Source of the DNA: Octopus sinensis
Taxonomy: Eukaryota
Length of the DNA: 64,000 nucleotides
Assembly: GCF_006345805.1 (NCBI RefSeq)
Contig: NC_043006.1
Coordinates: 91,698,001-91,762,000, forward strand
Direction: 5' to 3'
Positions 16,266 to 50,407 of this stretch are shown here, in pieces. The translations under genes were made by a program, and so were the position numbers. A model generated the notes under the pieces. The model searched no databases and was not told where the DNA came from. It worked only from the letters and a program-made list of their open reading frames with translations. Every line of letters starts with the position of its first letter. Position 1 is the first letter of the stretch.

Positions 16266-16312
16266 TGTCAAAATATTTTCGTCGCTTTGAGACCGCGACC
16301 TGTTCACTGACA
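16266..16312 (-). ncRNA. Minimal type I hammerhead-like motif, G3-C8 core variant
   Basis: UGUCA-GUGAACA-G-GUCGC(ggucucaaa)GCGAC-GAA-AAUAUU-U-UGACA: 5-bp stem I, 5-bp stem II and a palindromic stem III. Confidence 0.6.
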
Positions 16313-17468
16313 TATATATGATATATGGGCACAAACACGCACACACATGTGCACATACGTGACGTATTTCCGCATTGACTCTATCAACAAAATTCCAAGG
16401 CACAAGGTATTGACCAGCCCGAGACTCAATGAATAATTCTTTGGAACGAAGTTGTTATTAGGCCACGCTGTTTGTTTTCCACCCTTCTATTGGAAACCAA
16501 TGATCAATGTACATATGAAAATATTCTTCGTAGAAAGGAAGAAAGAAATATTAATACGAAAATCCTTTTCTCTGGCTTCACAATGTATTTGATATGTTAA
16601 GATTATTCCATGGCAGCTCTTCTATGAAATTCGTTGCATCTAACCGCATTCATGAATTAGTAAGTGCGGTTTGTATTTCAACAGAAGGGACGTGGCTGGA
16701 AATCATTCTACAAGATAATCTGTGTATTTATGAATATTTATATGTATGTGAGTATGCATATGCACACATGGGCGTATATACATACAATTCTCTCTCTCTC
16801 TCTCTCTCTCTCTCTATATATATATATATATACACATATACATATATATATACGTGTATATATATTTGTATATATATACGTATACGTTTGGATGTGTGTT
16901 TCTATATTTATATATAAATATGTATGTATGTATTTACGCATGTATGTATGCATATGTGTATGTAAGTATGTATGCATGTGTACGTAAGTATGCAACTGTG
17001 ACTAAATTCATTCATGCATGAAGAAAAGCGAACGTATACACACGTGTTGATAATAGACTGTATGCACAAGTGGTGTATTTCAATGTTATAGTAGCGATAG
17101 GTCAATGTATGGATGTACGTTCATTTCTTTCAATGTGGATTTTATACACTATAATAGATAATAAAATGAGATTGACAGGCAAAAGATTATGAAGCGAAAT
17201 TTATGCATAAATTATGTACATTATATTGTATTATATTACTTAGTCATTATATATATAAATATATATATATATATATATTATATATATATATATAAATATA
17301 TATATATATATATATATAATATATATATATATATATATATATATATATAAATATATATATATATTGATAAAAATGGCAAGACAACAAAAGAATGAAAGAG
17401 ACATCGATATTATATAAATAGAGGAATGTATCTGTAAATGTAATATGTGACAATTATTCGGTAGCCAT

Positions 17469-17529
17469 GATAAAACTCCGAGTTTCGGATGCCGAGGTGA
17501 AAATCCACGCCGCCATCTCTTCAGTTGTC
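17469..17529 (-). ncRNA. Minimal type I hammerhead-like motif, C3-G8 core
   Basis: GACAA-CUGAAGA-GAUG..long stem II..CAUC-C-GAA-ACUCGGAGU-U-UUAUC. One mismatch in stem I and an extra C before GAAA. Confidence 0.55.
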
Positions 17530-17549
17530 CGGCCATCGGAAAAATGCTC

Positions 17550-17635
17550 GCATTCATTTTATCTCTTTCAATGATACCCAGGTACTTATATCCTTCCTCT
17601 CCGACTTCTTTCATAGTTTTACCACTTTCCAGCTT
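17550..17635 (-). pseudogene. Short R4/Dong-type RT fragment
   Basis: Translates to KEVGEEGYKYLGIIE, the RT domain-7 motif. Confidence 0.55.
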
Positions 17636-17873
17636 TTATACTCACACACACACACACACACAACACACACACACACACACACACACACACACACACACAC
17701 ACACACATATGTATATATATGTATGTATAGGGAAAAATAAGAACAATCAACGAAAATGCACATTGTAAATAAAAAAAGAAAAGGCTTTTTATGAAAGGTA
17801 ACAACAGATATATACATTTAAATGGACTGAGGTAGTAATAAAAGTCATTATTATGAGAAGATTAAAGAGTCAT

Positions 17874-46381: not shown

Positions 46382-46852
46382 AGGCGGAGAGCTGGCAGAA
46401 TCGTTAGCACGCCGGGCGAAATGCGTTGCCGTATTTCATCTGCCGTTACGTTCTGCGTTCAAATTCCGCCGAGGCTGACTTTGCCTTTCATCCTTTCAGG
46501 GTCGATTAAATAAGTACCAGTTACGCACTGGGGTCGATGTAATCGACTTAATCCGTTTGTCTCTCCTTGTTTGTCTCTTCTGTGTTTAGCCCCTTCTGGG
46601 TAGTAAAGAAATAGGTATATTTCCAATGTAATGAAGGTGGTAAGCTGGCAGAGTTGTTATAGCTGCTATTGCGCCGGGCAAATTGCTTAACAACAGTTCG
46701 CCCCTCTTTACATTCTGAGTTCAAATTCCGTCGAGGTCAACTTTCATCCTTTCATCCTTTCGCGGTGGATAAAATAGGTAACAGTTGAGTATTTGACTCC
46801 ATGTTATCGACTTACCTCCTGCCCCGAACTTGCCTTGTACCAAAATTTGAAA
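46382..46852 (+). mobile_element. Young SINE B (46382-46613) directly upstream of an older SINE B (46634-46852)
   Basis: GGTATATTTCCAAT(A/G)TAATG is duplicated on both sides of the young copy. Confidence 0.88.
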
Positions 46853-47574
46853 TCGATATTTCTAAATGTAATCAATAAACTCTTCGACTGTGTTGAGTTG
46901 GGTTCAATCTTCTTGAAATCAATATTTTACTGATGGCGATTTTTTTCAGAAACAGCTACGTTGGATGTGAAGTGGAAAAATGCCTATGAAGAGTTACTTC
47001 AAAGACATCTTGTAGCAGTTGTTGTGTAACTCCAGGTCATTCAGGATCAAGACGAACTGCATATAACGAAATGCATTCCAGCGATGGCGACCGATTTTTA
47101 AAAGTGTTTCTCCAATTTCTAACCTTTGGAACCACTACGCCGAGACCCCCTCATTAACACGAAGAAAAGACGGGTAACATGCGCAATTAATGTTAATTAA
47201 TGTCATAAAACAACAATAATGTCTGGATTTTAATGCATCCATCTTCGGTCAACAGTTACACCGATTGAACCACTTCATATCCAGAGTTAAAATAAGACAA
47301 GATGAATTTATTGGTCGATTTTTAGATTTGCCTAAAAACATTCTTATCCTAAAATCCGTATCTAGTTCTATAACCAATTTTATTGCATAATACACACATT
47401 TATATATACATATTTATATATATTTATATATGCACACGTACAACTATCAATTTATGTATGTATATACATACGTATACACACATGCGTGTTTAAATTCTTT
47501 CTTCGTTGACCTATCGAGTTGGTTTCATTTTGTTTCTATAAATAGAAAAATAATTATCTATCTATTTATCTATA

Positions 47575-47782
47575 TTTGTGTGTCTGTATTTGTCATCCCA
47601 CCATCGCTTGGCAACAAATATTGCTGTGCTTTCGGCCCTGTTATATAGCGGTTCGGCAAAAAGGACCGACAGAATAAGTACTAGGCTTACAAAAATTAGT
47701 GCTGGGGTCGATTTGCTCGAGTAAAGGTGATGCTCCAGCATGGCTACAGTCAAATGTCTGAAACAAATAAAGGAATAAAAGA
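47575..47782 (+). mobile_element. SINE family A 3' part
   Basis: GAATAAGTACTAGGCTTACA..GCTCCAGCATGG. Confidence 0.8.
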
Positions 47783-50371
47783 ATATACATATATATATAT
47801 AAATATATATATATATATATATATATATATATATATATATATATATATATATATATATATATATATGCCTTCTTCTCCGATGATGCGTAGTGAATTTTCG
47901 CCTTGCTGAATCGACAGTGTCCGTGGTTTAAGAATGTTAATATATTCATTTATATAATACTCTGAATCCAATATGGGGATTTTCATAACTATGGACTAAT
48001 AAGATTGTCAAATTAGAATTCTCTTCGCATATATATAAATACAAATGTGCACACGTACACGCATGGACATATTATGTGGAGTAAAATCATCGTGAAGAGA
48101 ACGATATAACCGCGAAGTGTGGCTTTTAAAAACATAAACATGGCGCAGGCTTTTGACGAATTGATACAAATATGTTGGGTTTTATTGAAGCCATGAATGA
48201 ACCCTTTCAACAAATCTTTTAGAGTGTATTGTCAATAAAGCATTATTGGCATTACTCCCGACACTCCGAAAGCATTTTAGAAATAGTCTTGAGCAAACAC
48301 TTGATGCCGGTAGTCTATTGTTTTGTTGTTTATGTGTTAGTTTACTGTTTTCATAACATACATTCGTTTCACATAGTTTAACAGGGAGTTACCAGTAACA
48401 TGCAATATAGGTTAAGTAGGTTTATTCCCAGTAATGAAATAGTAATGCTTAATAGCAGTTAAAAATAGAAATATTAATATTTATTGCCAAACTAACGTGG
48501 CAGTCTAGAGGAATAGTGTGGATTAGCGCCGAGAGGCGATCGCCTCTAGCTAGCTATATAGAAATAATTTTCTTGTTATTCTTTCTTAAAATCTTTGCCT
48601 TGCATTCAAAACTGGTATCAGCACAGCATATAATTTTATTATACAATTAGACATATCTCAAGATATTAGCTAAGCAGCGTAGCTTGAAAGTAATTATTTT
48701 GTTTTATCTTCTGCGGTATGTTATACTAACACTACATCGCAACACATTACCAAATAAATGCAATAACTTGCCAATGAAATAAAATTCAGGTTAATTCGTA
48801 AGTGTAGATTACAAAAATACTTAAAATTGTGTATTTTTACAAAATATTTTGTTTTGATTGATAAAGGTTTTAGAGTTAAAATCATTGAAGTTCAATTAAT
48901 AATGCTATACAAATGACATGATAAAGCAGCACTCGTTATTTCTCTTTAATATTTATATCAACTCACTGACAATATTGATCTGAATACAAACAAGCGTCTT
49001 GTAATTTCAATATGTGTTAATTTTAAAAGAATTTTTGTGCATTTCTATTAACTGAACTGTACTTGTAAACTTAATTTATTTGAATTATGAGTAATGACGA
49101 ACTGATAGCAAACCATGTGATTCTATCTCTCTGAAAGTGATTCAAAGAACGGAAGTTCATGCAAAGAGATATGTTGATAAATCATTATTAGCTGTTGTTT
49201 CTTTAACTCGAATTTCTAGATTGTGTATTATTTCGTATATTTTATTTTTGAATACAAACAAAACTATGAACTCCTATTAGATCTGATGTATTTGATGCTA
49301 ATTTTATATAATACTATGGATAATTAGTGTATTATAATCGAAATCAATATTTTACATAATCAATATGAAGCTCCAGAGAACGATGTGGAGGTAGACTCAA
49401 TCAACCAGTTTCTTTTCTCTTACACACTAGATATATACTCTTGTAGACTGAAAGAAAAGCATTCACCTGTAATTTCTATTCCCTATTATAAATGAACTAA
49501 TGAAATAATATGAAGCGTTTGGATATATATCACTAAGAATTACAACAAAATAATAAAACCTACCATTACCTCAATGTTTGTTACGTATTAACTAACTCGA
49601 AATTTCGTTGTTGAATAAACTGCTTAAGCATATATTTAATATGCATCTATATTTGAATTGGTTTGTGAGAGAATATTTGAAACTAAGTATTATATATAGA
49701 CCGAATAATATTAGCTAAATGTTCATAGATAGTAAAGAAAACGCAGTGAATTAATTAACATTTAGATTAATAGAATTTAGATTAATAGAATTTGCCAACC
49801 TATTTTGCTTAAGATAGACAGTAATATTGCGAATTGAATTGCATATTTATTATCTCTTAAGAAGTACCAGAGCACTTTATAAAAGTAGTCGAACATTTAA
49901 TTCTAACATCAATATTTATGGCTTGAGAAAATTCTATTTGAAATATCCACAGTTTATGTATACGATGGAAATCTATATTGACTTAATTTATTCTAATGTA
50001 TTGCAAGTGAATAGAGACTTCTGTGCTATACTTATTTAATGTGGTTGATATGTGTGTTTCTATCTCTCTGTATTAAGAAGATTATATAAAGTCGCAGGCA
50101 TCACTAGAATTAGCTGCTACAATATACTATTCTTTAGTGCCTTAGTACCTGTTTAGTCATGAAGAGACATAGACACACTCTCGGCTCCCCAAAGATTGAC
50201 GCAGCTGATCAGCGAAGATGTAAAAATTAGAGATAGAAAATGCTGAAACAGTCAGTAGGCCTGTACTAATTTCCACAAGAGTAAATTGGAATAACGTGAA
50301 AAGAAGCGAATTGCTTAAGGCGCAAAAATCAAGCAGGTGTATTAGTTTGACGCTCGGGAAAATGAAAACGT

Positions 50372-50407
50372 CTTTTACGTTTCGAGCCTACGCTCTTCAA
50401 CAGAAAG
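50372..50407 (-). ncRNA. Minimal type I hammerhead-like motif (C3-G8, A6U variant)
   Basis: CUUU-CUGUUGA-A-GAGC(guag)GCUC-GAA-ACGU-A-AAAG: Penelope-type layout with palindromic ACGU and a GUA triplet. Confidence 0.6.

Follow-up and report, generated by a model that had tools for sequence, protein, structure and literature searches.

A 64,000-nucleotide stretch of the 2.72-Gb Octopus sinensis genome (NC_043006.1, positions 91,698,001 to 91,762,000; G000:C10:91698001-91762000 in our numbering; hereafter the window) carries six hammerhead motifs of five families, A to E, which judged by their sequence are minimal type I hammerheads in the terminal repeats of five families of Penelope-like elements (PLEs). 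The tertiary pair between core positions 3 and 8 differs among these families: as family-level majorities in genome-wide patterns it is found in all four Watson–Crick forms (C-G, G-C, U-A and A-U), as the initial annotation of the window had proposed from the six copies, and the core of family E (C3-G8) has U at position 6. We consider it probable that the families with G-C, A-U and U-A pairs are slow ribozymes, predicted to depend on dimers, whose active fold is under selection.

Every one of the six motifs has the layout first described for it: stem I, stem II, GAA, a self-complementary stem III and an H17 (Table 1). All but the copy at 18485 lie on the minus strand; the cores read as plus-strand sequence at the originally annotated positions were ruled out, as they are absent there. 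The annotated starts 16266, 17874, 18480, 41032 and 50372 are the exact low-coordinate ends of stem I, and 17469 is correct under the family A form of stem I, although in the window copy the parse stops at 17472. Only family A has a literal CUGANGA core; because B (GUGAACA), C (AUGAAUA), D (UUGAAAA) and E (CUGUNGA) deviate from it, we class them as variants of the minimal type I PLE hammerhead. In alignments of the best matches per family the odd cores recur, and U4, G5, A9, G12-A13-A14, A15.1-U16.1 and G10.1-C11.1 are family majorities, with defects only in the copies at 18485 and 41065. Among the four changes first listed as defects of individual copies, A9G (18485) and A14G (41065) are indeed private to window copies, whereas A6U (50403) and the short stem II (17907) are family-wide. 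The odd cores are thus family states, not decay of copies. The second family A copy is probably a dead hammerhead. The window is rich in microsatellites and has many decayed retroelements; its hammerhead copies are solo and truncated, and probably inert unless partnered. An Rfam scan of the window had no hammerhead among the best 150 of its 287 rows, giving microsatellite-driven microRNA noise instead, and at gathering score there were 0 hammerhead matches in 13 representative loci, canonical ones included.

Table 1. Minimal hammerhead motifs in the window (positions of the window; elements approximate)
Motif	Positions	Strand	Core	3-8 pair	N3	Stem II	Stem III	Position 17	Element	Remarks
Family B	16266..16312	-	GUGAACA	G3-C8	16307	extra G, then 5 bp	AAUAUU	U, 16271	~16180-16312	5'-truncated PLE terminal repeat
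Family A	17469..17529	-	CUGAAGA (canonical)	C3-G8	17524	long	ACUCGGAGU	U, 17474	~17350-17548	one stem I mismatch
Family C	17874..17913	-	AUGAAUA	A3-U8	17907	1-2 bp	ACCAUGGU	A, 17880	~17720-17953	
Family A, second copy	18480..18540	+	CUGAAGG		18485				~18462-18598	inverted-pair partner; copy-specific A9G, plus C11.1U
Family D	41032..41068	-	UUGAAAA	U3-A8	41065	extra G, 5 bp	AAUU	U, 41035	~40930-41500	private A14G
Family E	50372..50407	-	CUGUUGA	C3-G8, with U6	50403	extra A, 4 bp	ACGU	A, 50376	~50330-50440	

Motifs of this kind exceed chance expectation. A fixed descriptor (stem I of at least 3 bp; N-U-G-N-N-N-A, with positions 3, 6, 7 and 8 free; an optional extra base; a G-C-closed stem II; GAA; a self-complementary stem III; H) recovered three of the six window motifs, against 0.39 in local dinucleotide shuffles; the three that it missed carry copy-specific defects. 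In a random sample of the genome (60 stretches of 10 kb at round coordinates, with 20 local dinucleotide shuffles as control) there were 24 matches, 20 of them Watson–Crick at 3-8, versus 1.55 (0.5) in the shuffles; a stricter descriptor gave 18 matches (15 paired) versus 0.8 (0.2), and a 200-kb hold-out gave eight (six paired, two U-G) versus 0.64 (0.1 paired). Over the pooled 800 kb there are 32 matches, of which 26 are paired at 3-8 and just three have the canonical CUGANGA, compared with about two in the shuffles and three in the reversed sequence. The enrichment over shuffles (12–15 times) was reproduced in the hold-out, so selection of the motifs by eye, a bias that the initial annotation had allowed for, is not the explanation.

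Because best matches in alignments lean towards the query, we ran exact patterns over the whole genome, leaving positions 3, 6, 7 and 8 free and tallying the listed rows by eye; 86–96% of the listed copies per pattern have a 3-8 pair, and reversed-pattern controls gave 0 or 1 match. The pattern for B and D has 8,501 matches: 93 of the first 100 are paired at 3-8 (seven are mismatched), all 100 have A6, 61 belong to B (G3-C8 in 56) and 39 to D (U3-A8 in 37). Family C has only 50 matches genome-wide, 43 of them A3-U8 and the other seven mismatched or chance. A second A3-U8 family, K, found in flanks, has 670 matches, with A3-U8 in 91 of the first 100. Family K (L415-L434) has a 2-bp stem II and a GNRA-like 4-nt loop that varies from copy to copy.

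Family E is the largest. With positions 6 and 7 free it has 12,974 exact matches; U6 is found in 99 and C6 in one of the first 100, and A6 in 128 of the 12,974 (∼1%; this is the fair figure, as cluster E of the analysis below contains 10 loci chosen for A6, which biases its own tally at this position). N7 and N17 are the positions left free in hammerheads, and both vary: N7 is about 50 U, 22 A, 15 C and 12 G among the 99 U6 rows, and with positions 3, 7, 8 and 17 free (11,617 matches) N17 is about 58 A, 41 U, one C and no G in the first 100, 96 of which have C3-G8. The tallies at 3-8, N7 and N17 are the free tests, because the descriptor itself demands most other positions; the patterns used for E likewise prescribed much of the motif, and part of the conservation at positions not left free is a consequence of this. 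Other position-6 variants, CUGGAGA and CUGCAGA, are found with good stems at L165 7668(-) and L181 4926(-), in one or two copies each.

The pairing at 3-8 is a property of families well beyond those in the window. After de-duplication, 279 distinct descriptor matches over 1.9 Mb formed 14 clusters of at least two copies and 20 singletons. The majority at 3-8 is Watson–Crick in all 14 clusters (seven C-G, four U-A, two A-U and one G-C), so the family consensuses keep the complementarity that the initial annotation expected of them; 14 of the 20 singletons are paired as well. None of 100,000 permutations across clusters gave pairing as high, although the 1.9 Mb were largely gathered for these families and the clusters are mutually related, so they are not independent events. 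The control pairs 3-7, 7-8, 3-6 and 6-8 were not enriched (2–6 of the 14 clusters).

Related endonucleases (see below) extend the comparison to other organisms. Seven proteins are similar to the endonuclease of family B; a metagenome search from a single sequence found nothing, but the search based on their alignment led to 79 metagenome loci. These loci have 28 descriptor matches (shuffles: 1.3), most of which follow closely after the endonuclease; by their 3-8 pair they comprise 20 C-G, three U-A, one A-U, one poor G-C and three mismatched. The A3-U8 minimal hammerhead, at L348 1710(+), is downstream of a related endonuclease on a metagenome contig, and this state is therefore not restricted to the Octopus sinensis genome. 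The endonuclease trees pair B (G-C) with D (U-A) as sisters (support 97/97 and 100/98), and likewise L348 (A-U) with L357 (U-A) (95/93 and 98/96); C and K (A-U) are placed among U-A families in a group without clear branching. The window thus has the five families first counted, but not five unrelated ones. The sisters B and D differ also within stem II, by a C-G versus a U-A pair. The four 3-8 states require seven changes on a tree of 22 rows and eight on a tree of 19 rows, against a minimum of three; both trees omit L364 and L413 (too short), the 19-row tree omits also A and the near-duplicate metagenome rows L346, L368 and L391, and both are midpoint-drawn and so give no order or direction of switches. 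From these placements U-A looks like a stepping stone between 3-8 states, since the G-C and A-U families adjoin U-A families on the tree.

In each of A to E, longer copies continue 5' of the motif, on its sense strand, into PLE coding sequence that includes a GIY-YIG-type endonuclease. The parent of A (L077) is an endonuclease fragment only, ending CxxC..E..N..CxH, in an inverted-repeat structure. The parents of B (L307 and L324), reached by a walk through the low-complexity untranslated region of the family, are colinear from the end of the endonuclease to the motif over ∼1 kb, and the window copy is 98.7% identical to L307 over 77 nt; these colinear parents rule out B as a stand-alone short element or miniature inverted-repeat transposable element. 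Family C has an open reading frame (ORF) with a reverse transcriptase (RT) thumb and a GIY-YIG-type endonuclease upstream (L083, L069, L290 and others), D an RT-thumb/endonuclease ORF (L109, L104, L285, L286) and E a long RT and endonuclease ORF (L288). Further families beside an endonuclease are F (L174), G and P with U3-A8 and K (L415, L431) with A3-U8; in G the lone ORF-bearing copy is C3-A8, and four out of five copies are U3-A8. The Cys linker in C, F, G and P we take to resemble, and no more than resemble, that of the PLE clades Neptune, Nematis and Hydra. Identity of the endonucleases rests on motifs and mutual similarity: Pfam GIY-YIG was below cut-off in two of eight fragments (E-value 7e-4 for L174; 0.022 for L077) and absent in the other six. 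The copies have a PLE-like anatomy, being 5'-truncated with inverted 5' partners and (TA)n flanks; by eye, family B has two alternative 3' ends ∼60 nt apart, and there are target duplications at L193 and L043. The inverted partners, (TA)n flanks and alternative 3' ends match the PLE anatomy described in parts of PMC8557442 and PMC11167929, and the CxxC and CxH around a conserved E and N in the family A endonuclease resemble the Hydra PLE clade as described in PMC8557442.

Two further observations concern PLE coding sequence. L174 (G000:C11:60000001-60010000) holds, at 3271-7970, an almost complete PLE that encodes RT, Cys linker and endonuclease and is flanked by inverted repeats, each with a U3-A8 hammerhead. 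In the window itself, 14385-15645(-) is a Penelope-type RT fragment decayed by frameshifts and stops. It was considered as the parent of the B copy at 16307 and rejected, as unrelated DNA intervenes and the ORF of B is different; it is parent to none of the six motifs.

The pairing at 3-8 has a known catalytic context. Residue 8 is proposed to act as the general acid through its 2'-OH, and pairing with residue 3 holds its base in place (PMC6155905, PMC8495972); the identity of the base would therefore be free provided that the pair is kept. Engineered ribozymes with a pair-preserving 3-8 swap are described as partly active (PMC8495972, PMC11167929), and an engineered C3G/G8C change is described as partly rescuing a PLE hammerhead that cuts only with the PLE protein (PMC11167929). 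Two repeats of one tandem transcript are described as pairing through the palindromic stem III. In the mechanism that we propose, the motifs likely cut slowly as dimers, probably aided by the PLE's own protein. The 3-8 pair is C-G, G-C, A-U or U-A according to the PLE family, and selection on the active fold would maintain it; the U6 family would be slower still. For family E the prospects of predicted cleavage are more evenly balanced, its free positions varying as in a working hammerhead. The broader proposition, that the 3-8 pair evolves freely through four Watson–Crick states and A6 is replaceable with predicted cleavage kept, probably by protein propping the active fold, we put forward as tentative.

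Several points weigh against selection on slow, dimer-dependent ribozymes. The permutation result overstates independence because the families are related; the endonuclease tree is short, with 6–7 inner branches without support; and the pattern tallies, except for family C (all rows), were made on the rows listed first, which are from the largest contigs. No pile of read ends was seen in RNA reads of a related organism on the B unit (1,081–1,446 reads per run) or the E motif (1,683–1,772), a weak test of cut-site ends as the libraries are unstranded and have both mate directions. Few unselected genomic copies start within 3 nt of the predicted cut (A 2/24, B 0/24, D 0/19, E 1/44, K 0/4). The stem III duplexes are very weak (B −0.2, D +2.2 and E −1.7 kcal/mol), and in this are of the same kind as the 4-nt palindromes of published minimal hammerheads (min-HHRs) in PMC4209133. 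A natural A6C hammerhead, of phage Bcep176, is reported in PMC3088659 with a kobs under 0.1 per min, and U6 may therefore be nearly inactive. Finally, in vitro insertion of one PLE did not need cleavage, as described in PMC11167929.

Genomic start positions say nothing on catalysis. Most unselected copies start 5' of the core (A 15/24, B 17/24, D 15/19, E 40/44, K 4/4), and since the whole motif is retained, new copies likely derive from uncut or re-ligated RNA, as described for the Anolis Poseidon element PAc (PMC11167929). An apparent cluster of 5' ends in B and E was discarded as partly an artefact of the end of the query copy.

The alternative that holds up best accepts cleavage by B, C, D and K and takes E as a hammerhead that died once, by an ancestral A6U, and has since been hitch-hiking on an otherwise active element. 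A6 is indeed present in all 56 representatives of Fig. S3 of PMC4209133, and cleavage is described as dispensable for insertion in vitro (PMC11167929). We nevertheless find this doubtful: E has kept C3-G8, stem II and a palindromic stem III through its diversification at N7 and N17, and U6 predominates in the related organism too, where N7 and N17 rank with the most variable positions of the E reads and U6C (6–7%) is the only change at position 6 above the 4% threshold.

Still less likely is a fold kept for some non-catalytic job (RNA dimerisation, or a site for the PLE protein near the start of reverse transcription), the variant families, above all U6, no longer cutting. This would fit the lack of cut-site ends in the RNA reads and at the insertion boundaries, the description of uncut RNA as the main insertion substrate in vitro (PMC11167929), and the largest family, which is without A6 in 99% of its exact matches yet has been amplified both here and in the related organism. 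However, 3-8 is a contact of the catalytic core and yet covaries in all 14 families, and the retained G5, G12-A14 and A15.1-U16.1 and, in E, the absent G17 are requirements of cleavage.

That the families are retrozymes, non-coding tandem repeats spreading via small circular RNAs, is very improbable. Many copies are short and solo, and L293 has an array of three canonical motifs, which belongs to a different family; but each of A to E has coding parents, and no circular junction stood out in the RNA reads of the related organism on the B unit. The retrozyme reading is thus contradicted at the family level; short non-autonomous sub-lineages may exist. The initial annotation had spoken of PLE or retrozyme families with compensated cores that a CUGANGA search would miss, and the PLEs and the missed cores stand. 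That the motifs merely arose by chance and were selected by eye from AT-rich repeats can practically be dismissed: the descriptor is short, about two of the 32 random-sample matches are expected by chance and Rfam models do not detect the motifs, but the enrichment, the hold-out replication, the covariation by family and the sense-orientation place downstream of PLE endonucleases all contradict it.

Part of this picture is already published: min-HHRs of PLEs, an additional base following A9, and U3-A8 as a natural pair. Cervera and de la Pena (2014, PMC4209133) report U3-A8 PLE hammerheads in Schistosoma mansoni with ∼1,300 matches, and the metazoan PLE min-HHRs described there share with ours the type I layout in terminal repeats, a short stem I, a palindromic stem III, an extra nucleotide between 9 and 10.1, G10.1-C11.1, mostly solo truncated copies and inverted pairs. 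The 56 rows of its Fig. S3 are C3-G8, U3-A8 and one U3-G8, with no G3-C8, A3-U8 or U6; here these states characterise families whose copies number from hundreds to thousands. The passages of Perreault et al. (2011, PMC3088659) on core variants describe natural U3-A8 covariation and one position-6 change (A6C), as rare single examples, and name no G3-C8, A3-U8 or U6. The PAc hammerhead, as described in PMC11167929, likewise is in a PLE terminal repeat, is protein-assisted and shows no RNA-sequencing ends at the cut site, but G3-C8 is a laboratory rescue mutant there and the natural state of the young family B here. The non-LTR (long terminal repeat) metazoan retrozymes of PMC7229834 and 10.64898/2026.07.22.740005 also carry hammerheads of type I with a link to PLE terminal repeats, but are described as tandem non-coding units, whereas A to E have coding parents. 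PLE-associated small hammerheads that cleave as dimers are credited to Lunse, Weinberg and Breaker (RNA Biol 14:1499, as cited in PMC6765202). Within the papers accessible to us, a search for natural G3-C8, A3-U8 and U6 families found just engineered swaps (G3-C8 in PMC11167929, PMC8495972 and PMC3884650) and natural U3-A8; the sole match for A6U was a paper on twister (PMC11662667). Natural families with G3-C8, A3-U8 and U6 are therefore probably new, and the alignments of Lunse et al. may already hold such rows.

The compensatory-mutation experiment that defines the 3-8 pair appears to have been repeated by nature in amplified element families. This is evolutionary evidence for selection on the active hammerhead fold in PLEs, where in vitro work has reported cleavage to be weak and unneeded for insertion. 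With only three canonical cores in 32, censuses based on CUGANGA can undercount heavily, which bears on claims of PLE groups without hammerheads; were the four-state proposition true, canonical descriptors would miss about nine out of 10 hammerheads in such genomes. The Octopus sinensis genome would then hold ∼100,000 intact motifs (extrapolated from 32 matches per 800 kb), and natural G3-C8, A3-U8 and U6 ribozymes would be a ready series for probing the role of cleavage in PLE transposition. As for the U6 family, either the tolerated core is wider or a dead ribozyme fold has been retained for another purpose.

Other repeats were noted along the way. L293 (G000:C15:8412901-8422900) has its three canonical C3-G8 hammerheads at 3037, 3389 and 3741, in a retrozyme-like tandem arrangement with 352-bp spacing. 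A 223-bp inverted repeat at 22926-23403 of the window consists of two inverted copies of a further repeat with a hammerhead, a relative of L293; both arms have the core CCGAUGA (U4C), with N3 at 23241(+) and ∼23088(-), and an extra A before GAAA. The window also contains a two-copy 148-bp tandem repeat (33896-34189) and a 120-bp hairpin around a (TA)n tract (59921-60040), and the fragments at 2327-2743(-), 31635-32057(-), 42525-42983(+) and 10386-10769(+) presumably resemble RTs of long interspersed nuclear elements and a Tc1-like transposase.

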